DNA of 64,000 nt from Gemmatimonadaceae bacterium (GCA_036554285.1 DATBNO010000109.1:248-64247), one strand, 5' to 3'. Counted from the first letter of the stretch, positions 658 through 57,998 are shown. The notes: generated by a model not told the origin, from the sequence alone. A program made the numbers and translations.

Positions 658-1839
658 ATGCGGATTGTCTCGATCGCCGCGCATTCCGCCGTGATGCACG
701 GCCTGTGCACCATGGGATCGGTTGCGGCCTTTCTCACGCTTGCCCTCGGGCCGCCCCCTCTCGCCGCGCAAAGCGCGATGCCCCAAGGCACCGTCAACGC
801 ACTCGTTCGCGACACCAGCGGCGCGGAAATCACCGGCGCCGAGGTGGGCATCGCCGGTACCGACTTGCATGGCTACACCGACAGCGACGGCCGCCTCCGC
901 CTTGGCCCGGTCGCCGCCGGACCCGTCCGCCTAACGGTGCGGCGGTTGGGCTTCCGCGCGATGACGGTCGACCTCTCCGTCGCCGCCAATGGCGCAACGG
1001 CCGATACAGTGCAGTTGGTGGAGGTCGCGCACCGCCTCGACCCAATCCTCGTGCGTGGCTCGATCCATTCGTACAGCGGAACGATGTCCGGCTTCTACGA
1101 ACGCCGCGGCCAAGGCTTCGGCCACTTCTTCTCGCGCGCGGAAATCGAAAAGACGCACGTCACGCGTCTGAGTGACTTGTTTCGATACGTGCCCGGCATG
1201 CGCCTGGTGTCCACCAGCACAATCCAGAACGCGGTGCGCATGCGCGGCGCTACCACGTGCCCGCCGCTGGTGTGGCTGGACGGAACGCCCGCCGCCACGT
1301 CCGAATACGACCTCGACACGATGGACCCGCTTTCCATTGACGGCATCGAGATCTACAGCGGCCCGGCCGAAGTGCCCATGCAGTTCAAACCTCCTCTGGA
1401 CGTTGTGGCGTGCGGCGCGATCGTGATCTGGTCGCGGCGGGGCGAGCGGCACGACGAGTCGCCGTACGCGTCCGATCCCGACACATTGCAGAAGTTGGTG
1501 GCCGCGCTCACGATTTATACGGCCGACGAAGTGGACACGCCGGCGCATCAGGACACGGCGGTGCGCGTCCAGCCGGTCTATCCGGAAGCGCTCTTCATGT
1601 CGGGAACGAGCGGCAGGGTCGTCGCCGAATTCCTGGTCGACACGATGGGTCTCGTGTCGATGCCAACCTTTAGCGCCATCTCGTCCACCGACCCGGAATT
1701 CACGATTGCCGTTAGGCAGGCGTTGGAGAAAGCACAGTACGTGCCGGCCGTGCGCAAGGGCCAGAAGGTGCAGCAAGTGGTCGAACAGCCCTTCACGTTC
1801 GTCAGCGACAGCACCCTCGCCAAACGGCGCCGCGGCTGA
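658..1839 (+). CDS. Exported protein with carboxypeptidase-regulatory-like, TonB-receptor plug-like and TonB C-terminal-like domains
   Basis: ATG 658 is preceded by AAGGAGA (644-650) and followed by a hydrophobic signal-like N-terminus. Domain-like stretches: GTVNALVRDTSG...TDSDGRLRL (CarboxypepD_reg-like), FFSRAEIEK...VPGMRLV...VRMRG...LDG...IEIYSGPAEVP (plug-like), PVYPEALFMSGTSGRVVAEFLVD...PAVRKGQKV (TonB_C-like). The ORF-track start at 478 is judged too far upstream. Confidence 0.8.
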   Translation: MRIVSIAAHSAVMHGLCTMGSVAAFLTLALGPPPLAAQSAMPQGTVNALVRDTSGAEITGAEVGIAGTDLHGYTDSDGRLRLGPVAAGPVRLTVRRLGFRAMTVDLSVAANGATADTVQLVEVAHRLDPILVRGSIHSYSGTMSGFYERRGQGFGHFFSRAEIEKTHVTRLSDLFRYVPGMRLVSTSTIQNAVRMRGATTCPPLVWLDGTPAATSEYDLDTMDPLSIDGIEIYSGPAEVPMQFKPPLDVVACGAIVIWSRRGERHDESPYASDPDTLQKLVAALTIYTADEVDTPAHQDTAVRVQPVYPEALFMSGTSGRVVAEFLVDTMGLVSMPTFSAISSTDPEFTIAVRQALEKAQYVPAVRKGQKVQQVVEQPFTFVSDSTLAKRRRG

Positions 1840-1844
1840 CGATG

Positions 1845-1871
1845 AGGCCGGCCGGCCCACTCGGCCGGCCT
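1845..1871. terminator. GC-rich hairpin between convergent genes (AGGCCGGCC-loop-GGCCGGCCT), overlapping a GCCTAACG copy
   Basis: A 9-10 bp perfect stem read directly (1845-1853 pairs with 1863-1871). No U-tract on either side, so terminator function is uncertain. Confidence 0.35.
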
Positions 1872-1881
1872 AACGGAGAGG

Positions 1882-3037: not shown

Positions 3038-3070
3038 GACCGCCTCCCGCCAGAAAGCAAGACCTTGACG

Positions 3071-3103
3071 ATTCAAACAGTCGTTTAATACAATTGTTTG
3101 AAT
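3071..3103. promoter_or_regulatory. Perfect 9-bp inverted repeat ATTCAAACA-N15-TGTTTGAAT in an AT-rich divergent promoter region; candidate operator for the operon-encoded TetR
   Basis: Read directly. It lies 46 nt upstream of the hlyD ATG and is flanked by TTGACG (3065-3070) and TTGACA (3103-3108) -35-like hexamers. Confidence 0.45.
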
Positions 3104-3148
3104 TGACACGCCGGCCCCAAAACGTCGCTGGTCCGGAGCCCGACACTC

Positions 3149-5200: not shown

Positions 5201-6319
5201 ATGCAGCGGACCTGGGCCATCATCGAGCGCGACCTGCGCCGCTTCCGCCGCAGCCCGGCGCTCATCATCATGTCGCTGCTCATGCCGATCGTGCAGCTCG
5301 TGGTGTTGGGCTACGCGTTCGGCGGCAATGTGAAGCACCTCAAGGTGGCGCTGGTGGACGAGGACGGTGGCGTCCCCGCTGTGCGCCTCCACGCACTCGC
5401 CAACGCCGTCGCCGAGAACGCGCAGACGTTCGAGACGATTCCCTACGGCGATCGCGGCCAGGCACTCGCCGCCCTGCGCAACGGCGCCGTCAACGGCGTC
5501 CTCACCATTCCGCCGGGGTTCTCGCGCCGCGTACTGGAGAAGGACGACCCGCGCGTCGCCCTCATCGAGGACAACACCGACAACTTCGTCACGGCGGCGC
5601 TGGCCGGCACCTTCGGCAGTCTGTTAGGCGCCTACAACCGGCCCCCGCCCAGCACGCGCCGGCTTTCGTCCGACCCGACGCTCGAGACGGTCGAGCTCTA
5701 TCCGTACGTGCCCTACATCCAGTACCTGCTGCCCGGCTCCATCGTGATGTCGATCTTCATGATGGTGATGATCGGCGGCGGGATCATCTACATCGATGAC
5801 AAAGCCCGCGGCCTGCACGAGGGCTACCTCGTCACGCCCATCACCCGCCTCGAGCTGATCTTCGGGTTCAACGCGGCGGGCGCGATCAAAGCCATCATCG
5901 CCGGCGGCGTGCTCATGACAATCGGGTCGCTCATCGCGGGCATCCCGAATCCGTTCGATCCGGTCCGGTTGGTGCGGCTCTTCATCGTGATCGCGGTGTC
6001 GTCGGTGGCGCTGGTGAGCATGATGTTCTTGCTCATGGTGCGCATGAACGATCCGCTCTTGCCGCGCGCCTTGTTCGGGGTGCTGAACACGCTGCTCTGG
6101 TTCCCGAGCGGCGCCATCTATCCGCAACAGGCATTCCCGAAATGGATGCGCGCGCTCGCGACGGTCGACCCGTTCACGTACGCCGTGCACGCCCTCAAGA
6201 GCCTGCTGCTCAAGAACACGGGCTTCTCGGCCATCTGGTTCGACCTGCTGTACCTCGCCGTGTTCTCGGTGCTCACCATGATCGCGGCCACGCTGCTCTT
6301 CAAGCGCACGCTGTCATGA
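5201..6319 (+). CDS. ABC-2 type transporter permease
   Basis: N-terminal TM, large extracytoplasmic loop, and C-terminal 5-6 TM bundle typical of ABC-2 permeases. Follows the ATPase gene directly. Confidence 0.9.
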   Translation: MQRTWAIIERDLRRFRRSPALIIMSLLMPIVQLVVLGYAFGGNVKHLKVALVDEDGGVPAVRLHALANAVAENAQTFETIPYGDRGQALAALRNGAVNGVLTIPPGFSRRVLEKDDPRVALIEDNTDNFVTAALAGTFGSLLGAYNRPPPSTRRLSSDPTLETVELYPYVPYIQYLLPGSIVMSIFMMVMIGGGIIYIDDKARGLHEGYLVTPITRLELIFGFNAAGAIKAIIAGGVLMTIGSLIAGIPNPFDPVRLVRLFIVIAVSSVALVSMMFLLMVRMNDPLLPRALFGVLNTLLWFPSGAIYPQQAFPKWMRALATVDPFTYAVHALKSLLLKNTGFSAIWFDLLYLAVFSVLTMIAATLLFKRTLS

Positions 6320-6975
6320 CCGCCCGCCGCCACGCGCCTAACGGAACAGAGTCGGATACGGCCACGCACGGGCGCCTCCTCGCCGCGGCCACACGCCTGT
6401 TCGCCCAACACGGGTTTCACGCCGTGAGCGTGCGCGACATCGCGCGCGCGGCCCGGGCGAACGTGGCCGCCGTGAATTACCACTTCGACGGCAAGCTCGG
6501 CCTCTATCGCGCTGTGGTGCGCGCCGCCGTGCACGCCATGCGCGCCGGCGACGACGCCTATCTCACCGCCCAAACCGACGCGTCGCCCGAAGACCAGCTG
6601 CGCACGTACGTGTCAGGCTACCTGCCGCGCATCGCGTCGACCGACGATCGCACGGCGTGGATTCACGATCTCATGCGCCACGAGATGTCCGAACCCACGC
6701 CGCTCGCACCGTGGATCGCCGAGCACGGCATCATGCCGCGCATCGAGTTCCTGTCCGGTGTGGTCGCGAAGCTCCTCGGCTGCAAGCCGGCCGACAAGCG
6801 CGTCGCCCGCTGCGTCATCAGTATCCAAGCGCAGTGTTTGTTCTATCGACCCGATCGATTTCGCACCGCGGCGTTCAAGGAATGGGCGGTCACCGTCGCC
6901 GATCTCGCCGCGGTCGCCGATCACATCGTCGAGTTCTCGCTCGCCGGCATCAAGCGGATCGCGACGCGTGGTTAG
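6316..6975 (+). CDS. TetR/AcrR family transcriptional regulator
   Basis: HTH region LLAAATRLFAQHGFHAVSVRDIARAARANVAAVNYHF. The ATG overlaps the permease stop (ATGA). Confidence 0.9.
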   Translation: MTARRHAPNGTESDTATHGRLLAAATRLFAQHGFHAVSVRDIARAARANVAAVNYHFDGKLGLYRAVVRAAVHAMRAGDDAYLTAQTDASPEDQLRTYVSGYLPRIASTDDRTAWIHDLMRHEMSEPTPLAPWIAEHGIMPRIEFLSGVVAKLLGCKPADKRVARCVISIQAQCLFYRPDRFRTAAFKEWAVTVADLAAVADHIVEFSLAGIKRIATRG

Positions 6976-8453
6976 GGACTCTGCATCGCCACGCGCGGCG
7001 GCCGGCGCTTCATCAGCGCTTCGACTTCCGAGATCTCGCGCGGCGCGTCGCTCGACATCCGCTTCAGCCCGTTCGCCGTCATCACGTAGTCGTCCTCGAT
7101 GCGGACGCCCACGTTCTGGTAGCGCAGCACCACGGGCCGCACGCGCGCGATGAATGCGCGATTGCGTGGGGTGTCGGGCAGCGCATCGAGCGTGCGCGTA
7201 CTGATGTAAATCCCCGGCTCGATCGTGAACGCGTCGCCCGGTTTGTAGGCGTTCGTGCCATAGTAGAACTGCACGGGATCGTGCACGGCGAGACCGAGTC
7301 CATGGCCGAGGCCATGGATCATCCAGAGGAGCGCTTGCGTGCACGCTCTCGGGTTCTTGGCGCAGTCCGGACTCCCGGGTGGATCGATCTGCGCGTTGGC
7401 GCTGTCGATCAAGCCGAGCGCGGCCAATCCGCGCGCGCGAACCGCGAAGGCTGAGTCGCTGGCTGCCACCGCGCTTGCGCCGGGGGTGCTGGCCCTTTCC
7501 GCCGCCGCCTGTGCGTCGCGCACGAGTTGATAGATCTTCCGCTGCTCGGCTGTGAACACGCCGCTCACCGGCAGCGTGCGCGTGATGTCCGCGGCGTAGC
7601 CGTGATACTGCGTGGCCGCATCGATCACGACGAGATCGCCGGGCTTGGCGGCCGACGTGTCCAACATGTAGTGCAGCTGCGTGCTGTTGAGCCCCGCGCC
7701 CACGATGGACCCGTACGCCGGACGGTCGCCGCCTAACCGCTTGAAGGTGTACTCGGCCACCGCTTGCCATTCGTATTCGTGCTTGGGCTCGGGCGATTCC
7801 ATAATCGCGCGATGTCCGGCCGCGCTGATGGTTGCCGCCCGCTCGAGCAGCGCGATCTCGGCCGGCGACTTGCGCGCGCGCAGCTCGTCGACCACCGGCT
7901 CGGCGTCGTCGAGCTTGACCGATGCATGGGCGGCATGAAAGGCGTTCAGGAACATCCGCCCGCGCGTGAGCGAATCCTCGCGGGTGAAGTCGTCATCCTC
8001 GACGTCCGGGATCGCGTACACCGTTAGGCCGGACGATGCGAGCGAATCCATCAGGGGCGCCAGCGCCGAGAACGGACGCGCCGTTAGGCCGTTGTCGCGC
8101 GCGATCTGCGACGAGTCGGGCCGGAATCCGTAGTAGAACGCGAGATGCGGATCCACCGGCGTGGTGAAGAGCGTCGTGGTCTGGCGGCCGCCGCGCATCA
8201 CCATCACGAACGCCGCGTCGGGCTGTTGGTAGTCCGTGAGATAACGGAATGATGCCAGTTGGTAGAACGGGCCGAAGTCGGTGACCGGCGTGCGCGCCCC
8301 GAACGCGATGACGATGCCGCTGTCGAGCCGCGCCGCCAGCGAGTCGCGGCGCGCGGCGTACTCGGCCTGCGTGATCTGCGCCGCCGCGGAGGTGCCGGCG
8401 CACAGCGCGATAAGACCTGCGAGCACACATCGTCTGGCAACGGATGGAGACAT
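6972..8453 (-). CDS. Xaa-Pro aminopeptidase (peptidase M24B) with signal peptide
   Basis: Start MSPSVARRCVLAGLIALCAGTSAAAQ. Creatinase/prolidase N-domain, then the M24 metal-ligand region HGLGHGLGLAVHD...FTIEPGIY...VRIEDD. The ORF-track extension to 8978 is rejected. Confidence 0.9.
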   Translation of the reverse strand: MSPSVARRCVLAGLIALCAGTSAAAQITQAEYAARRDSLAARLDSGIVIAFGARTPVTDFGPFYQLASFRYLTDYQQPDAAFVMVMRGGRQTTTLFTTPVDPHLAFYYGFRPDSSQIARDNGLTARPFSALAPLMDSLASSGLTVYAIPDVEDDDFTREDSLTRGRMFLNAFHAAHASVKLDDAEPVVDELRARKSPAEIALLERAATISAAGHRAIMESPEPKHEYEWQAVAEYTFKRLGGDRPAYGSIVGAGLNSTQLHYMLDTSAAKPGDLVVIDAATQYHGYAADITRTLPVSGVFTAEQRKIYQLVRDAQAAAERASTPGASAVAASDSAFAVRARGLAALGLIDSANAQIDPPGSPDCAKNPRACTQALLWMIHGLGHGLGLAVHDPVQFYYGTNAYKPGDAFTIEPGIYISTRTLDALPDTPRNRAFIARVRPVVLRYQNVGVRIEDDYVMTANGLKRMSSDAPREISEVEALMKRRPPRVAMQSP

Positions 8454-8617
8454 GATGTTCACCGGAGCATTGTGAAAGTGAGGAGCGCAAACTGGTCGTG
8501 GCGCCGGCGCGAGTGTCCAGACTATAGCGATACCCGATAGCGTGCGGAAGCCGGGACGATGCTGCTTGAAGTCCGCGGGGTCGCGGGTTCCCGTGACCCC
8601 GGCGGAGCGCCGAGCGA

Positions 8618-9124
8618 TCAGCCGTAGCGATAGACCAACGCCGGCCCGTTGTAGAAGTCGATCTCCGTGTCGAACACGGCGCCTAACGATTGGGCCACGC
8701 GAATCGACCCGGCATTCGCCGGCCGAATCACGCTGATGATGTTGGTGCGACCGAGCACGGTATGCGCATAGGTGAGCGCCGCCGCCGCGCCTTCGCGCGC
8801 AAAGCCGCGTCTCCAGAATGGTTGGCCGAGTGTGTAGGCGATCTCGAAGCCCGGGAAGCCCTCGGGTTGCTGACATCCGATGCGTCCCATGAGTGCGCCC
8901 GTCGCTTTCTCCTCCACGGCCCACAGTCCGAAGCCGAGCAGCGTCCAGTGTCCGAGGATCATGGCCATTTGTCGCCATGCGTCCGTTCGCGACAGCGGTT
9001 TTCCATCGCCGAGGTATTTGGTGACTTCCGGGTCGCCAATGATGGCGGCGTATTCATCGATGTCGCGTTGCACGAAGGCGCGCAGCACGAGACGATCGGT
9101 GATGAGTGTGGGAATCGCAGTCAT
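8618..9124 (-). CDS. GNAT family N-acetyltransferase (RimJ/RimL-like)
   Basis: Start MTAIPTLITDRLVLRAF...; includes FWRRGFAREGAAAALTYA acetyl-CoA binding motif A. Confidence 0.9.
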   Translation of the reverse strand: MTAIPTLITDRLVLRAFVQRDIDEYAAIIGDPEVTKYLGDGKPLSRTDAWRQMAMILGHWTLLGFGLWAVEEKATGALMGRIGCQQPEGFPGFEIAYTLGQPFWRRGFAREGAAAALTYAHTVLGRTNIISVIRPANAGSIRVAQSLGAVFDTEIDFYNGPALVYRYG

Positions 9125-9214: not shown

Positions 9215-10623
<1,409 letters not shown>

Positions 10624-10627
<4 letters not shown>

Positions 10628-11421
10628 CGGGAATTGCGCGTCGGATGGTCTTCATCGGTGCTGTCGCGCGACGCCGTCACCGCATCGTCGACGTCGAGGT
10701 ACGGCACATCGCGCGTCGGCAGCTTCCAGATCGCCGTTCCGTTAGGCAGCATCCAGTGCAGGCGCACCAGATGCCCGTCCGCCTTGGATACCCACGCCAC
10801 GGTCGTCGGCGACTCCTGGACCACCAGGCACGCCACGGTCCCGGTCGCCGTGCGCAGCGCCGTCGTCCCCGTCACATGGTAGGCCGCCATGCGGACCGCG
10901 ACCTCCGGCGTGTTCGACACCGGAAGCCGCAGCGTGCTGTCCGGCGTCAGCGGGAACGCGGCGAGGAACGACTCCGTCATCAAGCCGTGGAAGAACGGCG
11001 CGCCTAACGGAATGTCGACGGCCGTCCGGCCGGAGTCGGCCGACCACGCGGTGCCGGTGAGCCGCCCGTCGTGGAAGCGCAGGTCCTGGCCGCTCGTCGC
11101 ATTGATCTGGACGATCCGCATCGGCTCGAGCGTCGCCGCGACCACGTCGAGCGTGTCCACTTCGCTCCCGCCGGCGGCGGACGTGTAGTCCTGTGTCTCG
11201 CGAAACACCGCCACGCCGCTGTCGCGCGCCTCCTCCACGCGGCGTACGAGCGTCCCGGCAATCCGTTGGGCGCTGTCCTTCGGAATCAGCACCAGGCTGA
11301 TCGAGTCGGTGTACGGATGAATGCGTCCCGGGTGCAACAACGGGCTCCCGGGAACCACCGTCTGGGCCACTGCCGACGATGCCGCGACCACCACCGCGGC
11401 ACAGCACCACACGATCCGCAT
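10624..11421 (-). CDS. Hypothetical exported protein
   Basis: Start MRIVWCCAAVVVAASSAVAQT (signal peptide). Coding-like composition, no family recognised. Its 3' end overlaps dtpT by 4 nt. Confidence 0.65.
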
Positions 11422-11520
11422 GCGGAAACTCCGAACGTGAGGGGACGGGTGCGCGACTCTGCCATCAATCACCGCAGTCGTTTGCATGTTCCGCCCAACG
11501 CGATCAGGCCGACCGGCGCG

Positions 11521-11787
11521 CTACGCGAAGCGCCGCCGAGCGCGCTCCTTGGCCTTGCGGGCCTCCTCGTCGCGATTCCGTGGCGGCGTCCGGATCTCGA
11601 GCGAGTCGATGAGCCGCCGCGCCGACGCCGTCACTTCGTCCACGGCGCGGGTGAACGCCTCTTCGTTAGCCCGCGACGGGTGCGTGCTGCCGCTCAACTT
11701 CCGCACGAACTGCAACGCCGACGCGCGCACTTCGTCATCGCTTGCCGGCGGCGCGAAATTCGCCAGCGTCTTGATGTTTCGGCACAT
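11521..11787 (-). CDS. DUF2277 family protein
   Basis: MCRNIKTLANFAPPASDDEVRASALQFVRKLSG... is the characteristic DUF2277 N-terminus. Confidence 0.8.
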   Translation of the reverse strand: MCRNIKTLANFAPPASDDEVRASALQFVRKLSGSTHPSRANEEAFTRAVDEVTASARRLIDSLEIRTPPRNRDEEARKAKERARRRFA

Positions 11788-12646: not shown

Positions 12647-12658
12647 CGTTAGGCACGG

Positions 12659-18261: not shown

Positions 18262-18428
18262 TGGGAAGCGCTTCCCATCAACTCGATCGGCCGCGATCCG
18301 GTCACATCGCCGTCGGCGAGGCAGCGCCATTCACCGGGTGGCTATTTTGATGTACGGCCGCGCTCACTTGCCCGCCCACCGGCGCCACGGCACAATAGAT
18401 CCATTCCTCACACTCTCCGGAGCCCTCG

Positions 18429-18983
18429 ATGCGTCGCCTCGCACTCGCCACCGCCCTCGCGTTAGTCACCGCCCTTCCCGCCGGCGCGCACGCGCAGGTG
18501 ATGGCCAGCGAGCACGGCATGGTGCAGCAACGCGTCGATGGCACGACGATCACCATCGAGTACTATCGCCCGCAGCGCCGCGGCCGCAACAACCTGTTCG
18601 GCGGCGTCGTTCAATGGGGCAGCACGTGGACGCCAGGTGCCAACTGGGCGACCACGATCGACGTCGACCACGACGTGAAGATCGACGGCCACGCGCTCGC
18701 CAAGGGCAAGTACTCGATCTGGATGGTGCCGCAGTCCAACGCATGGACGGTGATCTTCAGCACCGCCTGGAAGCGGTTTCACGTCCAGGGCCCCGATGCC
18801 TCCGCGCCCCAAGTGAAATTCGACGTGAAATCCGACAGCGCGCCGATGGTCGACGTGCTCACCTTCTCGTTCCCCGACGTCGCGCCCGATTCCACGACCC
18901 TGGTAATGCAATGGGGCACGACGGCGGTGCCGCTCCACATCGAGGTGCCGGCGTCCAATCAAGCGCCCCCGCCGGGCGCATAA
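18429..18983 (+). CDS. DUF2911 domain-containing exported protein
   Basis: Signal peptide MRRLALATALALVTALPAGAHA, then ITIEYYRPQRRGRNNLFGGVVQWGSTWTPGAN...GKYSIWMVP, typical of DUF2911. Confidence 0.85.
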   Translation: MRRLALATALALVTALPAGAHAQVMASEHGMVQQRVDGTTITIEYYRPQRRGRNNLFGGVVQWGSTWTPGANWATTIDVDHDVKIDGHALAKGKYSIWMVPQSNAWTVIFSTAWKRFHVQGPDASAPQVKFDVKSDSAPMVDVLTFSFPDVAPDSTTLVMQWGTTAVPLHIEVPASNQAPPPGA

Positions 18984-18985
18984 CG

Positions 18986-21049: not shown

Positions 21050-21397
21050 ATGACCGACCTCGACATCAACCTCATGCGCGGCACCCTCGACCTGCTGATC
21101 CTCAAAGCCCTCACGTGGGGGCCGCGACACGGCTACGCCGTGGCCGAGTGGATCGGACAAGCGACCGACGCTACGCTGCTCGTTGGCGAAGGGACGCTGT
21201 ATCCGGCGCTGCACCGCCTCGAGCGACAGCGGTTCGTGGAGGCCGAGTGGGGCGTGTCGGAGAACAATCGCAGCGCGAAGTTCTACCGCTTGAGCCCGGC
21301 CGGGAAGCGGCGGCTGGCTGTGGGCAGCTCGTCCTGGCACCATTTCGTGGAGCTCGCCAGCCGCGCACTGCGCGCGACGTCGCCCGAGCCGGCATGA
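21050..21397 (+). CDS. PadR family transcriptional regulator
   Basis: MRGTLDLLILKALTWGPRHGYAV...GTLYPALHRLERQRFV...NNRSAKFYRLS. Confidence 0.93.
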   Translation: MTDLDINLMRGTLDLLILKALTWGPRHGYAVAEWIGQATDATLLVGEGTLYPALHRLERQRFVEAEWGVSENNRSAKFYRLSPAGKRRLAVGSSSWHHFVELASRALRATSPEPA

Positions 21398-21424
21398 GGC
21401 CTAACGCAACGGCCGCCGACGCCG

Positions 21425-21976: not shown

Positions 21977-22144
21977 TGCGCACCATAGCCGAGCCCGCTT
22001 GCCGAGTCAAGCCCGGCCACCGGGCGGGCGAGACCGTGTCCGTGCCTAACGCATGACTCGCCGTTCGGCGCGATCACCGGTGCCGTTGACACCGACGGCG
22101 CGGCGCTGCACTTTCCCCGGAACGCTTCCGGGAAGGACGGTCCG

Positions 22145-24805
22145 ATGCCACGCGATCCCTCGAGCCGCATCGCCGGCGTGCGACGCCTGCTGCACCTCCC
22201 ATCCGTTCGCCACGACATCGACGACGAGCTCCGCTTCCACGTCGAGTCCCGCGTCGACGCGCTGCTCGCCCAGGGGCTCGACCGCCGAACCGCCGAACGC
22301 ACCGCCTGGCGCGAGTTCGGCGACCTCCCGTCCGCCCGCGCCGAGCTCGAGGCCATCGACCGACGCCGCGCGCGCGGCATCGCCCTCGGCGAATGGATCG
22401 AGTCCGTTAGGCAGGACGCGCGCGTCGCGCTGCGCGGCCTGGTGACGCGCCCCGTGTTTTCGCTCACTGTCGTGTTCACGATCGCCCTCGGCGTCGGTGC
22501 CAACGCCGCCATCTTCAGCGTGCTCGACGCGGTGCTGCTGCGCGCCCTGCCCTACGCGCATCCCGATCGGCTGGTCCACCTCTGGGAAACCTTCCACTCG
22601 AACGTCGCCAACCAATCCGAAGCGTCGTATCCCGACTATCTCGATTGGCGCGCACGCAATCGCGTGTTCGCCGACATGGGCGGCTACCGCGGCGCCGCCT
22701 ACGTACTCGGCTCCCAACAGCCGACGGTCGAGCGAGGGGCCCAGAGCACCGCGAACTTCTTCGACGTTCTCGGCGTGCATGCCGCCATCGGCCGGACGTT
22801 CTTGCCCGGCGAAGACGATGTGGGCGCCCCGCGCGTCGCGCTCTTGAGCGACGGACTGTGGAGACGAGCGTTCGCGAGCGACCGCTCGGTGATCGGGCGA
22901 ACGATCACGGTCGACGGGACGTCGGCCACGGTGGTTGGCGTGCTGCCCGCCGGCTTCACCTTCGCGCCGGTTCGCGACGCCGGCATCTGGATGCCCATCG
23001 ACGCGAGCGCCGAGTGGCGACGAGAACGCGGGAGTCACTGGTTGAACGTGGTCGCGCGGCTCGACCCGGGCGCGACGGTTGCGTCCGCGGCGCGCGAGAT
23101 GTCGTCCGTGATGACGCAAATGGGGCGCGAGTATCCCGGCGACGACGCGGCGCGTGACGCCCGCATCGCCCCGCTCCGGGACACGCTCGTCGGCTCCGTT
23201 AGGCCGCTGATCCTGCTGCTCTACGGCGCCGTGGCCGTGCTGCTGCTCGTCGCGTGCGTCAATTGCGCCAACCTGATGCTCATCCGCGGCGCCGACCGCC
23301 GCCGCGAAATGGCCGTGCGCATTGCGCTCGGCGCCGGCCGTGCGCGGCTTGTTAGGCAACTGATGACGGAGAGCGCGTTGCTCACGGCCGCCGGCGGCGC
23401 CCTGGGACTCGTCGTCGCGCGCCTCGGCCTTGCCGGGCTGCTCGGCTTGATTCCGCCGGGCGCGGTCACGCCGGTCCTCGCGGCCGCGACCATCAACGGC
23501 CCGGTGCTCATCTACAGTATCGGCATTTGCGTCGTGACGGCGATGCTCGTGGGTCTGGTGCCGGCGCTGCGCGAATCCGGCGCGGGGCCGGCCGACGGGC
23601 TCAAGCTCGGAGCGCGCGGGAACTCGCGTGCCGGCGCGCTGCGCGACACGCTGGTGGTCACGGAAGTGGCGCTGACGGTCGTGCTCGTTTCCGGCGCCGC
23701 CCTCTTCGGCCGCAGTCTCGTCAAGCTCATGTCGATCGAGCTCGGCTTCAACGCCGAGCATCTGACGACGGCGTCGATCGACCTGCCTAACGCAACGTAT
23801 CCGGACGCCGCCACTCGCGTACACGCGTTCGATCGGATCGTCAGCGCCGTCCGGGCGTTGCCCGGTGTGGACGGCGCCGGTCTGGTGACGCGGCTGCCGT
23901 TGGACTGGGGCACTTCCACCAGCTTCACGATCGTTGGGCAGCCGGCGCCCGCGCCCGATCAAGAACCGAGCGCCAGTTATCGCACGTCGTCGCCCGGGTA
24001 CTTCGCCGCGTTGGAAACGCCGTTGGTCGACGGCCGCGACTTCCGCACAGCGGACGATACGACCGCGCCGCTCGTCGCCATCGTGAATCGCGCGTTCGGG
24101 CGCGCGTACTTCGACGGGGCGACCGCGGTCGGGCAGCGGATTGTCCTCCATGGCACGGACTCGGTGCGGATCGTCGGCGAGGTCGGCGATGTCCCGATCG
24201 GCAACATCGACGACCGCGTCCCGCCAACGCTGTACATGGCATTCGCGCAGGACGCCGACAACGCGATGCACATCGCGATTCGGTCGCGCGGCGATGCCGG
24301 CGATCTCCCCCGCGACATTGCACGTATCGTCGACCAACAGGCACCGGGCGGAGCCGTCGTGCAGGCGATGCCAATGGATGAGCTGCTCGCGCAATCATCG
24401 TCGGTGTTCATGCGACGCTTTCCGCTGCTCCTCGTCGGCGCGTTCGCTCTCGTGACGATGGTCCTCGCGATGGTCGGCATTTACGGTATGGTGAGCTACT
24501 CGGTGTCGCAGCGCCGTCGAGAGCTGGGAATTCGCCTCGCACTCGGCGCCCAACCGCGGTCGCTGGTGTCGCTCGTCGTGCGGCACGGCGGCACGTTGGC
24601 CGGCGCCGGCATTCTCATCGGCCTAACGGTGGCGATCGTCCTGGCACGATTCATCGCGAGCATGTTGTACGGCGTGAGCCCGAACGACCCCGCTGCCTAC
24701 GCAGCGGCAGCGATCGTGCTCGCCGTCGTCGCGATCGCCGCCGGCGTTCTGCCTGCCCGCCGCGCGACCCGCGTGAACCCGGCCACCGTGCTTCGGAGCG
24801 ATTGA
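22145..24805 (+). CDS. ADOP-family ABC transporter permease (third paralogue)
   Basis: 886 aa. Prefix helix DIDDELRFHVESRVDALLAQG plus MacB_PCD/FtsX duplication. Confidence 0.92.
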   Translation: MPRDPSSRIAGVRRLLHLPSVRHDIDDELRFHVESRVDALLAQGLDRRTAERTAWREFGDLPSARAELEAIDRRRARGIALGEWIESVRQDARVALRGLVTRPVFSLTVVFTIALGVGANAAIFSVLDAVLLRALPYAHPDRLVHLWETFHSNVANQSEASYPDYLDWRARNRVFADMGGYRGAAYVLGSQQPTVERGAQSTANFFDVLGVHAAIGRTFLPGEDDVGAPRVALLSDGLWRRAFASDRSVIGRTITVDGTSATVVGVLPAGFTFAPVRDAGIWMPIDASAEWRRERGSHWLNVVARLDPGATVASAAREMSSVMTQMGREYPGDDAARDARIAPLRDTLVGSVRPLILLLYGAVAVLLLVACVNCANLMLIRGADRRREMAVRIALGAGRARLVRQLMTESALLTAAGGALGLVVARLGLAGLLGLIPPGAVTPVLAAATINGPVLIYSIGICVVTAMLVGLVPALRESGAGPADGLKLGARGNSRAGALRDTLVVTEVALTVVLVSGAALFGRSLVKLMSIELGFNAEHLTTASIDLPNATYPDAATRVHAFDRIVSAVRALPGVDGAGLVTRLPLDWGTSTSFTIVGQPAPAPDQEPSASYRTSSPGYFAALETPLVDGRDFRTADDTTAPLVAIVNRAFGRAYFDGATAVGQRIVLHGTDSVRIVGEVGDVPIGNIDDRVPPTLYMAFAQDADNAMHIAIRSRGDAGDLPRDIARIVDQQAPGGAVVQAMPMDELLAQSSSVFMRRFPLLLVGAFALVTMVLAMVGIYGMVSYSVSQRRRELGIRLALGAQPRSLVSLVVRHGGTLAGAGILIGLTVAIVLARFIASMLYGVSPNDPAAYAAAAIVLAVVAIAAGVLPARRATRVNPATVLRSD

Positions 24806-24806
24806 C

Positions 24807-25130
24807 ATGGCCGATTTGGATCTCTTGCAGGGCACGCTGGACACCTTGGTGCTCAAAGCGCTCACGTGGGGTCCGCGGCACGGCTACGCCGTGGCCCGGT
24901 GGCTCAAGGACACGAGCTCGGGCACGATCGAGGTGGAAGACCGCGCGCTTTACGTCGCGCTCCACCGTCTCGAGGAGCGCGGGTGGGTCGACTCGCAGTG
25001 GGGCCTGTCGGAGAACAACCGCAGGGCCAAGTACTATCAGCTCACGGCGGCGGGCCGCCGGCAGCTCCGGCAGAAGAGCGCGGACTTCACCACCTATGCC
25101 ACCGCGATGTTCAAGGTGCTTCGCGCCTAA
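24807..25130 (+). CDS. PadR family transcriptional regulator
   Basis: LQGTLDTLVLKALTWGPRHGYAV...RALYVALHRLEERGWV...NNRRAKYYQLT. Starts 1 nt after the permease stop. Its TAA stop is inside GCCTAACG. Confidence 0.93.
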   Translation: MADLDLLQGTLDTLVLKALTWGPRHGYAVARWLKDTSSGTIEVEDRALYVALHRLEERGWVDSQWGLSENNRRAKYYQLTAAGRRQLRQKSADFTTYATAMFKVLRA

Positions 25131-25132
25131 CG
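25125..25132 (+). repeat. GCCTAACG copy providing both stop codons of a convergent, 4-nt overlapping gene pair
   Basis: TAA (25128-25130) ends PadR on the + strand. TAG (complement of 25127-25129) ends DinB on the - strand. Confidence 0.95.
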
Positions 25133-28115: not shown

Positions 28116-28257
28116 GGCCTGTATCGGGAGGGAAGTCGGAACGGCGTTACACGATAGACTTGCGAGCGGCAACGGTGGTAAAACGGCGCTCGACCTTTCG
28201 GACGACCGATCGAATCACCCCGCGCACCGAGGCAGTCACCCTTCTCTCGCTCGTCGA

Positions 28258-30084: not shown

Positions 30085-30183
30085 GTTCGCCCGGATGGGG
30101 TTATTGCGTGTAGTTGCGCCGAATGAATTTTGGGGGGCGTCGGCGTGCGACGAGGTCGAAGGCCGAGCAGCGGAGCGACGAGC

Positions 30184-30819: not shown

Positions 30820-30909
30820 CGTGGCCGCACCATAGGCAGGGTGGGTGCGGCCATCATCATCGAAACATTTTGGCCGGCGCGAATTCGTGCGCCGAGTTGG
30901 GCGGGCGGA

Positions 30910-36537: not shown

Positions 36538-36645
36538 AAAACGGGGAAGCGCGCGCTGGGGGAGGCGCTGCGCTGGGGGAAGCGGCGGCTCGCGCCGCCC
36601 TCGGAAACGGAGAACGGCGGAGCGTGGGAAGTGAGGCGTGGGCCG

Positions 36646-37212
36646 TTAGGCCGTCGAAAGGCGGCGGGCGTAGTCGGCGAGGCGGATCAGCAGGCGTTGG
36701 ACGAAGCCGCGGGTCGTGGCGTCCGTTAGGCGGAGGTTGGCATCGAACTTGGTCGCGGCGGCGCCGACGAGCACCTCGGGACCGGGTAGCACGTACGACT
36801 GCGTGAACACGAACGACTGACGGAGCGCCAGTTGTGCGCGCGTCGTGCCCGACGTGCCCGTGGTGGCGCCCATCAGCGCGATGGGTTTGCGGTGCAACGA
36901 CGAGTCCGACGGAGGGCGAGACGCCCAGTCGATGGCATTCTTGAGCGCGGCCGTCGGCCCGAAATTGTACTCGGGACTCGCGATGAGGAGTCCATCGGCC
37001 GCACGAACGGCGTTGCGCCACGCGACCGCCTGCGGTGGGCCACCGTTCGTATCGATGTCGGGATTGTAGAGCGGCAGGTCGCCGATCCCGACGTATTCCT
37101 CGATCACCATGTCAGGCGGCGCGAGCTCGATCGCGGCGTGGAGCAACGCGCGATTGTAGGACTTGGCGCGCAGGCTGCCGGACACGCCGAGGATGCGAAG
37201 TGGTGTCGTCAT
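36646..37212 (-). CDS. NADPH-dependent FMN reductase
   Basis: Start MTTPLRILGVSGSLRAKSYNRALL...LLIASPEYNFGPTAALKNAIDW. The TAA stop is inside motif copy 36644-36651. Confidence 0.9.
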   Translation of the reverse strand: MTTPLRILGVSGSLRAKSYNRALLHAAIELAPPDMVIEEYVGIGDLPLYNPDIDTNGGPPQAVAWRNAVRAADGLLIASPEYNFGPTAALKNAIDWASRPPSDSSLHRKPIALMGATTGTSGTTRAQLALRQSFVFTQSYVLPGPEVLVGAAATKFDANLRLTDATTRGFVQRLLIRLADYARRLSTA

Positions 37213-37246
37213 AGTCGCACGATCGTTCGAATGCGTCGACGAGAAT

Positions 37247-45139: not shown

Positions 45140-45166
45140 CCGCCCGGTCCGCCTAACGGACTCGGA

Positions 45167-53561: not shown

Positions 53562-53577
53562 CGGAGCTCCCGCCGAC

Positions 53578-54051: not shown

Positions 54052-54761
54052 TCGCCGTCACGCCGCGTCCGCGCCGCGGGCGCGAATATCTGGATGACGC
54101 CGAGCAGATGGACACGCTCGTCGTCCGCCAATCGTTAGGCGATGTGGCGCGCGCCAACGCGCTCTTCGGCGGCACGCGGGCGGTGCTGGCGGAGCTCGCC
54201 CGTGCGGTGCGACACGCAGGGGATGGACGGCGGCCGGTCACGCTGCTCGACGTGGGCACGGGCCGCGGCGACATCCCGGCGGCGGCGGCGGCCTGGTGCA
54301 CCCGCCACGGCGTGGTCCTCGAAACGGTGGGCATCGAGAAATCCGAGTCGCTGGCGCGCATCGCGGCCGATCACACCACGGTCCTCTCCGCCGACGCGCT
54401 GCACCTGCCCTTCGCGAATCGGAGTGTCGACATCGTGATGTGCTCGCAGGTCCTCCACCACTTCGAGCGCGCCGATGCGATGACGGTGTTGCGTGAGATG
54501 CACCGCGTGGCGCGCCGTCGCGTGGTCGTGAGCGATCTGCATCGCAGCTGGCTCGCCGCCGCCGGCATCTGGCTCGCCTCGTATCCGCTCCTATTCCATC
54601 CGGTGAGCCGGCACGACGGTGTGCTGTCGGTGTTGCGCGGCTTCACCCGCGGCGAGTTGGGCGAGTTGGTGCGCCAGTCCGTTGGGCAGGACGCTCACGT
54701 CCGCTACCGGTTGGGCTTTCGCGTGACGGCCTCGTGGACGCCCGCGGAGCGCGACCAGTGA
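54048..54761 (+). CDS. Class I SAM-dependent methyltransferase
   Basis: Motif I LLDVGTGRGDIP and post-I/II region LPFANRSVDIVMCSQVLHHF. GTGA overlap with the upstream stop. Confidence 0.85.
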   Translation: MIAVTPRPRRGREYLDDAEQMDTLVVRQSLGDVARANALFGGTRAVLAELARAVRHAGDGRRPVTLLDVGTGRGDIPAAAAAWCTRHGVVLETVGIEKSESLARIAADHTTVLSADALHLPFANRSVDIVMCSQVLHHFERADAMTVLREMHRVARRRVVVSDLHRSWLAAAGIWLASYPLLFHPVSRHDGVLSVLRGFTRGELGELVRQSVGQDAHVRYRLGFRVTASWTPAERDQ

Positions 54762-55282: not shown

Positions 55283-55324
55283 CGGCGCGCGCAACTTCAT
55301 CTCGAGCACACGGCACATAACGAC

Positions 55325-56563
55325 ATGTCACGTCGCGTAGTGATTACCGGCATCGGCTGCATCACTCCCATTGGCAGCACCGTCGATGGTTTGTGGTGCG
55401 GACTGCAGGCGCAGCGGTCCGCGGTCACCGAACTGTCGCGGTTCGATCCGTCGCCGTTCCGGAGTCACCTGGCGGCGGAAGTGCGCGACTTCGAGCCTAA
55501 CGACTTCCTGGATCGCAAGCGGGCGCGCCGGTTGGACCGGTTCGGGCAATTTTCCGTGGTGGCGGCGCGGATGGCGATCGAGGACGCGCACCTGGACCTC
55601 GCCGTCGAGGACAAGGAGCGCATCGGCACCATGATGGGCACTGCGTTAGGCGGCGTGGGCTACGCCGAGGAGCAGTGCGGCGTGTACTATCGCGGCGGTC
55701 TCCGGGACGTGGATCCGGCGCTGGCACTCATGGTGTTCGGCGGCTCGTCCAGCTGCAACATCGCGATCGAGTTCGGCGTGCAGGGGCCGAACAGCACCAA
55801 CGCGATGAGCTGTGCGTCGGGCACGATCGCGATCGGCGATGGCTTCCGGCAGATCCGCGACGACTACGCGGACGTGATGATCTGCGGCGCGGCGGAAACG
55901 CCGCTGTGGCCGTTGTGCTTCGGCGCGTTCGCGATCATTCGCGCCATGTCGACCCGCAACGCCGATCCGGCGAGCGCCAGCCGTCCGTTCGACCGCGATC
56001 GCGATGGATTCGTGATGGCCGAAGCGGCGGCGGTGCTGGTGATGGAAGAGCGCGACCGCGCGATCGCGCGCGGGGCGCCGATCTACGGCGAGGTGTTGGG
56101 CTTCGGCATGTCCAACGACGCCTACCACATGACGGCGCCGCGCCCCGATGGCTCACAGGCGGCGAAGTCGATGCGCCGCGCGCTCGACGACGCGCACGTG
56201 CGTCCCGAGGAAATCGACTACGTGAACGCGCACGGCAGCTCGACGCCGCTCAACGACACCACGGAAACGCTGGCGATCAAGCGGGTGTTCGGCGAGCGCG
56301 CGTACCGGATCCCGGTGAGCGGCACCAAGGGCTACTACGGCCATGCGTTAGGCGCGAGCGGCGCGATCGAGGCGGCCATTTGCGCGCTGGCGATGACGCG
56401 CGACTGGCTGCCGCCCACGGTGAATCTGGCCACGCCCGACGAGGGCTGCGACCTGGACTACATCCCGCGCATCGGCCGCGCCGCCCAGCCCGAGCTGCTG
56501 TTGTCGAACTCGTTCGGCTTCGGCGGGATCAACGCCGCGCTCGTGCTGCGGAAGGCGAGCTGA
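55325..56563 (+). CDS. Beta-ketoacyl synthase (KAS I/II, FabF-like), stand-alone
   Basis: RVVITGIGCITPIG, active-site Cys MSCASG, His contexts DAYHMTAP and NAHGSSTP, and C-terminal GFGGINAALVL. Confidence 0.95.
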   Translation: MSRRVVITGIGCITPIGSTVDGLWCGLQAQRSAVTELSRFDPSPFRSHLAAEVRDFEPNDFLDRKRARRLDRFGQFSVVAARMAIEDAHLDLAVEDKERIGTMMGTALGGVGYAEEQCGVYYRGGLRDVDPALALMVFGGSSSCNIAIEFGVQGPNSTNAMSCASGTIAIGDGFRQIRDDYADVMICGAAETPLWPLCFGAFAIIRAMSTRNADPASASRPFDRDRDGFVMAEAAAVLVMEERDRAIARGAPIYGEVLGFGMSNDAYHMTAPRPDGSQAAKSMRRALDDAHVRPEEIDYVNAHGSSTPLNDTTETLAIKRVFGERAYRIPVSGTKGYYGHALGASGAIEAAICALAMTRDWLPPTVNLATPDEGCDLDYIPRIGRAAQPELLLSNSFGFGGINAALVLRKAS

Positions 56564-57998
56564 CGGGATTCGTTCCGTTAGGCGACCCGCCAAGCGCCTT
56601 GCGCAGCGCGCGCTGCACGGTGCGCTCGAGCGAGCGGGAGTCGGTGAACGGGTGGACGCGCCGCCAGGCCTCGAGATCCATCACGGCCTTGGCCATCACC
56701 GGATGGCCGCCGGCGCTGCCGTAGCGCTTGAACTCGGCCCGCAGGCGCTCGCCTAACCGGGCAGCCGGCGACAACGCGCGCGTGCTCATCACGAGGTTCG
56801 TCCCGAACACGCCCGACACGGCCGACACCGACGCGCCCGCCATCCCCAGGCAGAACTCGGCCAGCTGGGCCACGATGTGCTCCTGGTCTTCCGGCAACCG
56901 GCCCAAGTGCACGTAGGCCAGTCCCTCGTGCACGCGCGGGCGCTGCAGCGCATCGCCGAACCGCTTGAGCGCGAGCGTGCCGTACGACGGATGCTGAATG
57001 CGCCGCAGCATCGCCTGATCGGCCCGCGGGAACAGATACGCGAACATCTGCAGGTCGTCGTCGCTCGCCGAGCGCGAGAGCGACTTGGTGTCGGTCACGA
57101 TGCCGTAGAGCAGCGCCGTCGCCAACGGCGTCGCGATCTCCTGCTCGTCGGACGCCAACAGATACTCGGCCGCCATTGTGGCGCTCGCGCCGAACCACGT
57201 GCGCACGTCGCGGAAGCCCGAGCGATACGCCCCGGTGGTGGGGTGGTGGTCGACCACCGCCGCGACCTCGGGCAACGGGACCGTGAAGTAGGGCGGCTGC
57301 ACGTCGACGAGCACGAGCGGCGCCGATGCGGCGAGCTCCCGGCGCGTGACGTGCGCGACGACGACGCCCAACTCCTCGATCAGCCGGCGATTCTCGGGCC
57401 GCGTGACGTAGCCTAACGTAATGATCGGCGAGCGCTCGGGACGCATGCCTAACGCTCGGCGCAGCGCGAGGGCCGAGGCGATCGCGTCGGGGTCGGGGTC
57501 GTTCTGGACGAGGAACGCGCAGGTGCGCCGGCCGCGCAGCGCGCGCCGGAGACCGCGCAGGCGCTTGTGCGAGGCGACGCGCCGCAGCACCAGCTCGATC
57601 GCATCGGCCAGCAGCTCGCCCTCGTCAAGCCAGCGCAGTCCATCGCGGGCCGGTCCGTGGTGCGCCTTCCGCCAGTGGTCGATGACGAGGATCGACGCCG
57701 GCGGGAACGCGCCGCGCACCGCGCGCGCGACGCGCCGGGCGCGCGTCTCATCGGCGAGATCGATGACGGCGATCGCATCGCGCCCCTCGAGCGGCGCGAA
57801 CGTTTCCGACTTCGCCGGATCGCCGCGCAACGGCACCGACCAGTTAGGCACACGATGGTGGTCGCCGGTCCACAGGAACACCTCGCGGCCGGCGAGCGCG
57901 GATTGGCGCAACGCCTGCAAACGACCCGGCTGGTCGGACACGAACAGCACGCCGACCTTCGATCCGGACGATGGCACCGCTTTCGTACGATCGGTCAC
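56529..57998 (-). CDS. DHH/DHHA1 family phosphoesterase (NrnA-like) with N-terminal Rossmann/TrkA-N-like domain
   Basis: DHH motif AAVVDHHPT and DHHA1 GGH motif GSAGGHPVMAKA. GTG 57998 overlaps the ppa stop (GTGA). The 3' end overlaps the convergent KAS gene by 35 nt. Confidence 0.85.
   Translation of the reverse strand: MTDRTKAVPSSGSKVGVLFVSDQPGRLQALRQSALAGREVFLWTGDHHRVPNWSVPLRGDPAKSETFAPLEGRDAIAVIDLADETRARRVARAVRGAFPPASILVIDHWRKAHHGPARDGLRWLDEGELLADAIELVLRRVASHKRLRGLRRALRGRRTCAFLVQNDPDPDAIASALALRRALGMRPERSPIITLGYVTRPENRRLIEELGVVVAHVTRRELAASAPLVLVDVQPPYFTVPLPEVAAVVDHHPTTGAYRSGFRDVRTWFGASATMAAEYLLASDEQEIATPLATALLYGIVTDTKSLSRSASDDDLQMFAYLFPRADQAMLRRIQHPSYGTLALKRFGDALQRPRVHEGLAYVHLGRLPEDQEHIVAQLAEFCLGMAGASVSAVSGVFGTNLVMSTRALSPAARLGERLRAEFKRYGSAGGHPVMAKAVMDLEAWRRVHPFTDSRSLERTVQRALRKALGGSPNGTNPVSSPSAARARR

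Follow-up and report, generated by a model that had tools for sequence, protein, structure and literature searches.

The 8-nucleotide word GCCTAACG (reverse complement CGTTAGGC) is strongly enriched between convergent genes in the genome of an uncultured soil member of the Gemmatimonadaceae, and the counts presented here confirm that this is a property of the genome, extending beyond the stretch of DNA in which it was first noticed. That stretch, referred to below as the window, comprises 64,000 nucleotides of GCA_036554285.1 (DATBNO010000109.1:248-64247; C14:248-64247 of the assembly designated G000, which has 3.98 Mb in 124 contigs and 67% G+C). In a preliminary description of the window it was proposed that the word, or a degenerate form of it, is present at the stop codons of every convergent junction, where it acts as a bidirectional stop. 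The enrichment has proved to be strong, but its universality was overstated and the proposed role is not supported. The explanation considered most probable, at about 0.6, is that a clade-wide, hyper-abundant word has accumulated passively at gene 3' ends, where it is tolerated, and that it has no dedicated function as a stop or terminator; tolerance, rather than any junction-specific function, would then set its distribution.

Distribution and Origin of the Word

The genes used in this analysis were called with a crude codon log-likelihood caller of our own, which gives 2,801 genes covering 83% of G000 and unreliable start codons. At short junctions (gap of 60 nt or less), a copy of the word is present at 100-102 of 237 convergent junctions (42-43%), at 87-98 of 1,030 tandem junctions (8-9.5%), and at 2 of 108 divergent junctions (2%), the ranges reflecting two scripts with slightly different margins; the difference between convergent and tandem junctions is highly significant (Fisher P = 8e-31). 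These fractions are unmoved when the analysis is restricted to high-confidence, high-scoring genes, and they are reproduced in 1.15 Mb of a sister species, G004 (88.7% nucleotide identity to G000), where the corresponding values are 36 of 94 (38%), 23 of 243 (9.5%), and 1 of 30 (3%). The genome-wide comparison suggested in the preliminary description places convergent junctions far above tandem and divergent junctions in two genomes.

The number of copies per junction varies little with the length of a convergent spacer, being 0.41, 0.51, and 0.40 for gaps of up to 40, 41-100, and 101-250 nt, respectively; the values for tandem junctions in the same classes are 0.09, 0.12, and 0.17, and those for divergent junctions are 0.02, 0.03, and 0.08. 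Expressed per gene 3' end, there are about 0.2 copies at convergent junctions versus 0.1-0.17 at tandem junctions, and most of the convergent effect can therefore be attributed to two 3' ends sharing one short spacer. Around the stop codons of G000 the word peaks sharply at the stop itself and is in 3-5-fold excess, in both orientations, from 0 to 60 nt downstream, with no excess upstream. Copies that touch no stop codon are equally enriched in convergent spacers of 8-100 nt (6.8-8.9/kb). It is hardly credible, in view of the last result, that the enrichment is an artefact of mis-called gene ends or an automatic effect of the TAA and TAG in the word. Some enrichment at stops is indeed automatic, since a gene is closed by whichever in-frame stop comes first and 28-32% of the TAA/TTA trinucleotides of G000 belong to the word, but the excess varies with junction type, although every type has stops, and it is stable both with high-scoring genes and in the second genome.

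In the window, nine of the ten convergent junctions of the preliminary description were recovered at the same coordinates by the gene caller, and the tenth, at the TetR-family gene end 6975, by open reading frame (ORF) listing and Pfam matches. All seven exact copies that had been described near stops are present at their positions, and junction 18983|18986 adds an eighth, with an exact copy at a distance of exactly 30 nt, so that 8 of the 10 have a copy no more than 30 nt from a stop; when 70 copies are placed at random, 0.98 junctions are hit on average, and at most 6 in any of 20,000 trials. The three degenerate sites also read as quoted (GGTTAGGG, a 6/8 match, GCACTAACG, and GCATAACG, a 7/8 match). 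The two that lie at 4-nt overlaps are in themselves weak evidence because any 4-nt convergent overlap must be [TC]TA[AG], but one-mismatch variants are enriched at convergent junctions throughout G000 (7.1/kb versus 1.6/kb in coding DNA). The view that every convergent junction carries the motif does not extend to the genome, where an exact copy is present at about 40-50% of them.

GCCTAACG is the most over-represented 8-mer of G000, at 26 times the number expected from composition, and has 3,896 copies (0.98/kb) that are nearly equally divided between the strands (1954/1942). The window contains 70 dispersed exact copies (48 on the plus strand and 22 on the minus strand), as compared with 0.9 expected from dinucleotide-preserving shuffles. 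Position-by-position variant counts show that the constrained core is the 7-mer GCCTAAC/GTTAGGC, with 5,926 copies in G000. The eighth position, following GCCTAAC, is soft (G in 66% of copies), the flanks are nearly uninformative (C or T preceding and A two bases after), and single-base variants of the 8-mer are scarce. Copies are more evenly spaced than random, with 0.9% of neighbor distances in G000 at 30 nt or less versus 3.0% expected; long gaps follow an exponential tail, the largest copy-free interval being 11 kb (C65:28909-39932). The strand bias of the word is 56% in favor of the C-rich strand and the gene-strand effect is at least as large; a polar word of the Chi or KOPS (FtsK-orienting polar sequence) type was rejected on the grounds that the bias is only 56% once the gene strand is considered.

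The nearest named relatives of the host by HemB sequence are metagenome-assembled genomes (MAGs) of the Gemmatimonadaceae, and the window sequence occurs in soil metagenome runs; of the RNA runs, one metatranscriptome contains 6% of the words sampled from it. Among 25 species of the same GTDB genus, 13 have the word at about 1 copy/kb and the others have it at background level (fewer than 40 copies per strand); the carriers are exactly the species with HemB identity to G000 of at least 85%, a subclade. In G013, the most basal carrier, the density is halved (817 + 769 copies) and only part of the coding sites of the other carriers are found, which suggests that the word accumulated stepwise. 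None of the convergent junctions in a 37-kb sample of G013 has the motif, the sample containing only three such junctions.

The majority of copies in G000 (79%) are wholly intragenic, at a density of 0.93/kb. The frames used are xCG-TTA-GGC (1,494 copies), CCT-AAC (692), CTA-ACG (487), and GTT-AGG (230), and the two stop frames are used approximately zero times. Comparison of a 13-kb syntenic block in 15 species of the genus shows that point changes at conserved dipeptides give rise to the word: in A/T-L-G, xCG-CTS-GGC becomes xCG-TTA-GGC by a synonymous change of the Leu codon from CTC or CTG to the rare TTA, and in P-N, CCG-AAC becomes CCT-AAC by a synonymous change in the Pro codon. An amino acid change occasionally accompanies the creation of the word in genes. 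Between G000 and G004, 83% of coding copies, 84% of stop copies, and 76% of convergent-spacer copies are intact, as compared with 42-45% of background 8-mers. The origin of intragenic copies by point substitution, their conservation above background, and the restriction of the word to one subclade indicate, therefore, that a pressure acting at the DNA level wrote the word into this subclade and maintains it there.

According to the explanation favored here, this genome-wide pressure would both create and keep the word; the candidates are a drive from sequence-specific uptake or self-tagging and selection for a protein-binding or recombination site. The word reads as TAA in one frame of one strand, as TAG in one frame of the other, and as rare codons in the remaining four frames, and its density would follow tolerance, being lowest in divergent spacers, which bear promoters, about 0.9/kb in genes, and highest at and after stops. 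A convergent junction would combine two 3' ends in a spacer that has no promoter or ribosome-binding site and would acquire about 0.4-0.5 copies whatever its length. In the frames that read TAA or TAG, a copy could persist only as a stop codon, and an in-frame copy near a gene end would become the stop because other stops are rare at 67% G+C; a copy in frame with both genes would generate a 4-nt overlap (CTAA). As a side effect, demonstrated by the cases described below, direct copies at gene ends act as crossover points in the precise gain and loss of gene modules.

Accumulation in "permissive regions" is the accepted current reading for uptake sequences (bioRxiv 10.1101/2025.10.24.684340). 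The comparison with the DNA uptake sequence (DUS) of Neisseriaceae and the uptake signal sequence (USS) of Pasteurellaceae in the preliminary description was apt in this respect, as the DUS of Neisseria meningitidis follows the same order per region, with 375 copies in 268 tail-to-tail, 760 in 1,413 tail-to-head, and 104 in 270 head-to-head regions (Kingsford et al. 2007, PMC1852404, Table 4).

Several observations weigh against passive accumulation. Divergent spacers in G000 contain 0.25-0.5 copies/kb, below the level in coding DNA, a deficit that is not predicted by relaxed constraint alone and that requires the word to be harmful in promoters or 5' untranslated regions or the pressure not to act there; Neisseria head-to-head regions, in a rough estimate with assumed region lengths, are not below coding level. 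The constant number of copies per convergent junction over different spacer lengths could also fit a function at each gene end, and in-frame copies near stops are about twice as frequent as those in each out-of-frame class. The breakpoints of module insertions and deletions fall at the motif far above chance, which hints at a real role of boundary copies in recombination. It should also be recognized that the analysis rests on the genes of a crude caller with 83% coverage and unreliable starts.

Stop Codon Use and Folding at Convergent Junctions

The word does supply stop codons on both strands, as had been noted: of 870 convergent gene ends, 107 (12.3%) have its TAA or TAG as the stop. In G000, 99 genes end with GCC-TAA-CG and 80 with CGT-TAG-GC, and 13 of the 25 four-nt convergent overlaps consist of one full motif that serves both genes. 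About 70% of the copies at short convergent junctions give at least one stop (hand count of a sample of 60) versus 56% for random phase, and 13 of 102 give both stops versus 11% for random phase. In spacers of 68% G+C, chance alone would provide a stop only about once in 46 codons. These counts do not bear out a role of the word as a bidirectional stop or boundary signal, since its intragenic copies, 79% of the total, are in non-stop frames, the spacer copies that are not used as stops are equally enriched (7-9/kb), and only about 20% of 3' ends have a copy. Furthermore, TAA stop codons are not in motif context more often than TAA trinucleotides overall (about 21% versus 28-32%), and junction copies are not better conserved than coding copies (76% versus 83%). 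A supply of back-up in-frame stops past the real stop was also considered and rejected, the in-frame class not being the commonest downstream. The use of the word for stops looks like a consequence of the abundance of a word containing TAA and TAG where stops are scarce (67% G+C), as opposed to the reason for its presence.

The copies are single, in agreement with the preliminary description. Inverted pairs show no excess at short distances, and there are only 14 inverted neighbor pairs within 30 nt in G000. The contrast drawn with DUS and USS holds to the extent that no terminator pairs are formed by the word, whereas inverted pairs of DUS and USS form terminator hairpins. The junctions are also mostly free of hairpins, as had been stated, 7 of the 10 in the window folding no better than shuffled sequences (z > -1). 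Two of the window copies are associated with a hairpin: that at 1868 coincides in part with the 3' arm of a GC hairpin of 11 bp (fold z -1.45), and that at 45151 is in the loop of a small hairpin, GGTCCG-CCTAA-CGGACT (fold z -2.29). In the genome as a whole, the folding energy of short convergent junctions is -31 to -35 kcal/mol whether they contain the motif or not, as compared with -29.6 kcal/mol for coding 80-mers. Hairpins of intrinsic (Rho-independent) terminators are thus lacking at 7 of the 10 window junctions and are not motif-specific genome-wide, and the motif was rejected as a substitute for a hairpin, junctions with and without it folding alike. A terminator function of the junction copies is not supported because the copies are single, mostly hairpin-free, and no better conserved than the intragenic copies.

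The same body of evidence bears on the proposal that single tail-to-tail copies are a hairpin-independent bidirectional signal that stops translation or insulates converging transcription, for example by binding a roadblock protein. The strong and specific convergent excess, the single copies that end both genes in half of the 4-nt overlaps (13/25), and the depletion of the word in promoter regions, which would fit a site that blocks RNA polymerase, are in accord with this proposal, and the short motif-bearing junctions without hairpins would require some other mechanism of termination. It is nevertheless very unlikely, given that a copy is present at just 40-50% or so of convergent junctions and at 10-17% of tandem operon ends, that intragenic copies of the word, about one per kb and in both orientations, do not terminate the genes that contain them, and that the word stops a single frame per strand. 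Junction copies, in addition, turn over faster than coding copies, as is illustrated by the copy at the fabF-like gene end in the window: 4 of 6 close species have it, G007 has it in a form decayed by a single base, and G023 and G013 lack it (within the convergent DHH-family gene it is read as S-P-N-G). Motif-less sister species handle the same junctions with hairpins or other repeats.

Integron Core and Gene-Module Breakpoints

Direct copies of the word coincide with the limits of gene modules that differ between species. In 1.0 Mb of G004 aligned to G000, there are 25 clean insertion or deletion differences of at least 300 bp. In 3 of these, as compared with 0.11-0.17 expected from random or intergenic controls, the 7-mer occurs in direct orientation at each of the two breakpoints (within a tolerance of 20 nt) and once in the empty allele. 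A fourth motif-bounded difference, missed solely by the 20-nt tolerance, is the ADOP-PadR module of the window, a 3.08-kb segment that is present in G000 and absent from G004 and G007. The direct repeat GCCTAACGCA at its left end recurs at its right end as the copy at 25125, which also ends both genes at 25130|25127. The empty site in G004 and G007 has one copy, its left flank matching the left flank in G000 and its right flank the right flank in G000. The same site, between genes for DinB_2 and Uma2 proteins, has other cargo in place of ADOP-PadR in six other species: G017, G008, G012, G018, and G021 hold about 2.45 kb with two citrate-synthase-family genes, and the 5.6 kb of G024 encode a citrate synthase and, in reversed orientation, an ADOP-type permease. 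The filled states are bounded by direct copies where both ends are readable (the DinB_2 side of G021 is unmapped), one copy being decayed in G018.

A single thiamine pyrophosphate-enzyme gene on contig C90 of G000 has the TAG of the motif as its stop and another copy 10 nt before its start; it is found in ten other carrier species, G004 alone having lost it by a precise deletion. A 3.1-kb segment of G004 (C9:636896-639706) contains two pilin-like (N_methyl) genes, has direct GTTAGGC copies at its bounds, and is absent from G000 and G007. The proteins of this segment bear the type IV pilin N-terminal methylation motif; a type IV pilin-like protein class supplies the DUS receptor in Neisseria. 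Within the window, three ADOP-family duplicated permease genes lie in 13 kb (12659-15310, 15745-18330, and 22145-24805), the last adjoining the Pfam-confirmed PadR gene at 24807-25130, and there is a second PadR gene at 21050-21397; at least one ADOP-PadR pair behaves as a variable module. The repeat that flanks this module may extend to about 28 nt (GCCTAACGCA..GAC..CGCCGTTCGGC, from comparison of window positions 22051-22080 with L056 ~1700-1760), and an imperfect inverted copy, CGTTCGGC, lies 12-15 nt downstream within it.

The spelling of the word is of interest in relation to these breakpoints. In integron attC sites the inverse core R'' is RYYYAAC and the core R' is GTTRRRY, and R'' of the aadB attC site, GCCTAAC, overlaps the ORF end (PMC12901181). 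GCCTAAC/GTTAGGC is an exact fit to the attC/attI R-box consensus. In other families of the same order, GCCTAACG is found in same-orientation arrays with a spacing of 500-650 bp, and the three such arrays that were examined, in G027 and G025, consist of 95-105-nt repeats of the form GCCTAACG-L''...L'-GTTAGGC that fold as bulged hairpins. To judge from these features, the arrays are bona fide attC sites, belonging to chromosomal integron cassette arrays or to clusters of attC sites lacking integron-integrases (CALINs). Integron integrase genes that score above the TIGR02249 cut-off are present in G000 (C86:2842-3768, 398 bits) and in 12 other genomes of the genus. The presence of IntI was rejected as a discriminator, as species with and without the word have it and several near-complete motif-bearing MAGs do not. 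On the G000 contig C86, an inverted pair, GCCTAACGCGTGTTAGGC, is located at 2592-2609, about 230 nt past the 3' end of the integrase gene, and three copies in the same orientation, at 713, 1347, and 2592, continue to the contig edge; beside intI on this contig there is no clear attC hairpin or array. Copies in the window are dispersed and of both orientations and form no same-orientation cassette array next to intI or attI.

The copies in G000 do not have the organization of attC sites. The imperfect palindrome R''-L''...L'-R' of about 55-140 nt occurs only in the arrays of G027 and G025, and descent of the G000 copies from attC remnants was rejected, because there is no excess of R''...R' pairs of the 7-mer (84 proper versus 81 reversed). 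Variants compatible with RYYYAAC are not favored over other variants.

A recombinase could still act on isolated sites. IntI inserts cassettes at double-stranded genomic GWT sites and excises them (bioRxiv 10.1101/2022.09.11.507474), and a site-specific mechanism for the module breakpoints is therefore plausible by analogy. The word may, then, be the core of a site for a tyrosine recombinase, the IntI of the lineage or a relative, that acts on double-stranded "attG-like" sites, with genes and modules inserted and excised in the manner of cassettes at gene ends and with functional boundary copies. This would account for the identity of the 7-bp core with the R''/R' consensus, for the R'' (G[CT]CTAACG) and R' (GTTAGGC) boxes of the attC arrays in the same order, for the occurrence of integrase genes in G000 and 12 other genomes of the genus, for the 3 of 25 clean differences (4 with the window case) that have direct copies at both breakpoints, and for the DinB_2|Uma2 site, with four alternative states among species. 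We consider it unlikely, however, as most copies lie within genes and originated by point substitution rather than insertion, as R''...R' pairs and RYYYAAC-compatible variants are not in excess, and as both orientations are equally common at stops. Nor can the convergent excess be due mainly to insertion, which, occurring in either orientation, would leave as many copies in divergent spacers; these are about 20-fold poorer. The distribution of IntI, in motif-bearing and motif-less species and not in several of the near-complete motif-bearing MAGs, is a further difficulty, and the sole difference for which the polarity is resolved is a deletion. Recombination between copies of the commonest 8-11-bp direct repeat by microhomology, filtered by selection for breakpoints at gene ends, explains this resolved case equally well.

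A more far-reaching form of this proposal is that the word is an integron-derived tag that has spread throughout the chromosome, so that an IntI-type recombinase would read GTTAGGC anywhere and gene-end copies would delimit exchangeable cassettes; this appears improbable. It is similarly doubtful that, under such a chromosome-wide reading, the tail-to-tail junctions are safe sites for ADOP-PadR, citrate synthases, pilin-like genes, and single enzymes.

Comparison with Known Systems and Motif-less Relatives

To our knowledge, sequence-tagged genomes are known essentially from two proteobacterial families and, in the form of HIP1 (GCGATCGC), from cyanobacteria. DUS and USS resemble the word in having about 1 copy/kb, equally on both strands, in being restricted to one clade, absent from sister species and conserved above background, in using a biased set of frames that avoids stop frames inside genes, and in the ranking of tail-to-tail, tail-to-head, and head-to-head regions described above. 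The host also encodes competence-type genes (PilB, PilT, PilC, a ComEA-like HhH protein, and ComEC), as do the hosts of DUS and USS, in which competent cells take up DNA with a sequence bias by way of a specific receptor (ComP, or the predicted ComN). The word differs in lacking inverted-repeat terminator pairs, in being 79% intragenic, in a density in divergent spacers below that in coding DNA, in its integron-like spelling, and in its host phylum, which is Gemmatimonadota and not Proteobacteria. ComEC and the ComEA-like gene were rejected as discriminators, being equally present in motif-less relatives. The ComEA-like protein (30184-30819, Pfam HHH_3) has about 50% identity between carriers and non-carriers, as compared with 80% for HemB. 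A 4.46-kb region of the window without a copy (26943-31398) extends across pilT, pilB, and this gene.

The attC/attI R box shares with the word its 7-bp core and the frequent inclusion of the TAA of an ORF in R'', as at gene ends here. Direct copies that bound modules differing between species, together with integrases and true attC arrays in the genus or order, are also integron-like. In contrast with attC sites, the copies in G000 are lone half-sites that have no L boxes or paired R', do not form same-orientation arrays by intI, and originate mostly by point mutation in conserved genes; the published specificity of genomic attG sites is GWT only.

Repetitive extragenic palindromic (REP) sequences and bacterial interspersed mosaic elements (BIME) of enterobacteria are frequent between convergent genes, fewer between tandem genes, and nearly absent between divergent genes, the same ranking of junction types as found for the word. 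They are imperfect palindromes of about 35 bp, strictly extragenic and mobilized by RAYT transposases, whereas the word has 7-8 bp and is non-palindromic and mostly intragenic. The minimal mobile elements of Neisseria consist of variable cargo between conserved flanks and are exchanged by transformation. The DinB_2|Uma2 site is similar in having different cargo between the same conserved flanks but differs in that the cargo boundaries coincide with direct copies of a hyper-abundant word. HIP1, Chi, and KOPS are, like the word, hyper-abundant 8-mers within genes, but HIP1 is palindromic, and Chi and KOPS have a strong polarity relative to replication.

An uncultured soil clade of the Gemmatimonadaceae thus has the same genome-wide signature and tail-to-tail preference as the known tagged genomes but not the terminator hairpins that are usually invoked, which suggests that the accumulation of such words at 3' ends is independent of terminator function. 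If a recombinase does read these sites, integron biology would be linked to gene flux across the chromosome; if it does not, the hyper-abundant word would itself reshape gene content through recombination between short repeats and rewrite stop codon usage. The integron-core spelling and the precise module breakpoints make the case testable beyond description. In searches of the literature the literal word was found in primers only, and no paper linking uptake sequences to Gemmatimonadota was found; an Rfam scan of the window gave no match.

Coordinates of copies of the word, gene modules, and repeats (window numbering unless a genome or locus handle is given)
Feature	Location	Strand	Context
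Exact copy	1868..1875	+	42-nt spacer of 1839|1882, TonB/Plug-domain protein versus HD-domain protein
GGTTAGGG, 6/8 match	6970..6977		TTAG 4-nt stop overlap of junction 6975|6972
TetR-family gene	6142-6975	+	Overlaps M24 peptidase gene at TTAG
M24 peptidase gene	6972-8978	-	Overlaps TetR-family gene at TTAG
GCACTAACG, degenerate	10621..10629		CTAA 4-nt stop overlap, POT-family transporter gene versus DUF3108 gene
Exact copy	12647..12654	-	Fills most of 12-nt spacer, MsrB/SelR stop 12646 to ADOP permease stop 12659
GCATAACG, 7/8 match	18978..18985		Contains TAA stop of DUF2911 gene
Exact copy	19016-19023		Inside amidase gene, 30 nt from junction 18983|18986
Exact copy	21399..21406	+	2 nt past PadR TGA, in 27-nt spacer before Uma2 gene stop
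GCCTAACGCA, left direct repeat of ADOP-PadR module	22044..22051	+	Divergent spacer 21976|22145
ADOP-PadR module	22145..25130	+	ADOP permease 22145-24805, PadR 24807-25130; segment of 3.08 kb
Exact copy	25125..25132	+	Both stops at 4-nt overlap 25130|25127, TAA of PadR and TAG of DinB_2
Exact copy	36644..36651	-	Its TAA is the stop of FMN-reductase gene (36646-37323, -); ends 108-nt spacer
Exact copy	45151..45158	+	27-nt spacer 45139|45167
Exact copy	54133..54140	-	TAA of weak ORF 54135-54542 (-), no Pfam hit
Exact copy	56576..56583	-	13 nt beyond fabF-like TGA, in variable C-terminal tail of convergent DHH-family gene
attC arrays	G027:C95:1-20000; G027:C80; G025:C3		R'' G[CT]CTAACG, R' GTTAGGC, cassettes of 500-650 bp
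7-nt tandem blocks	L029 10986-11132, 15233-15367; L033 8268-8433, 15305-15443		
7-nt tandem blocks	L030 8543-8639, 9960-10052; L034 12887-12965		
REP-like palindromes	L030 ~16900-16980; L034 ~11510-11590; L036 ~8224-8254		

The weak ORF that ends at 54135 makes 54051|54135 a possible eleventh convergent junction of the window. In 17-40-kb samples of motif-less species, no alternative dispersed, hyper-abundant word was found. Candidate "dialect" words in these congeners (CCTGAACCC, GGAAACAGG, and CTGCTTTC) were rejected, as they are local 7-nt tandem arrays in inverted blocks. The motif-less congeners have blocks of (CCTGAAC)n, (GGAAACA)n, and (CTGCTTT)n organized as inverted arrays, the context of which was read at the fabF convergent junction of G005, G041, and G010, where the arrays are located in the position of the short spacer with the 8-mer in carriers. 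A family of REP-like palindromes, GACGGGGTCAGGT...ACCTGACCCCGTC, is present at convergent junctions of the motif-less species G005, G009, and G019.

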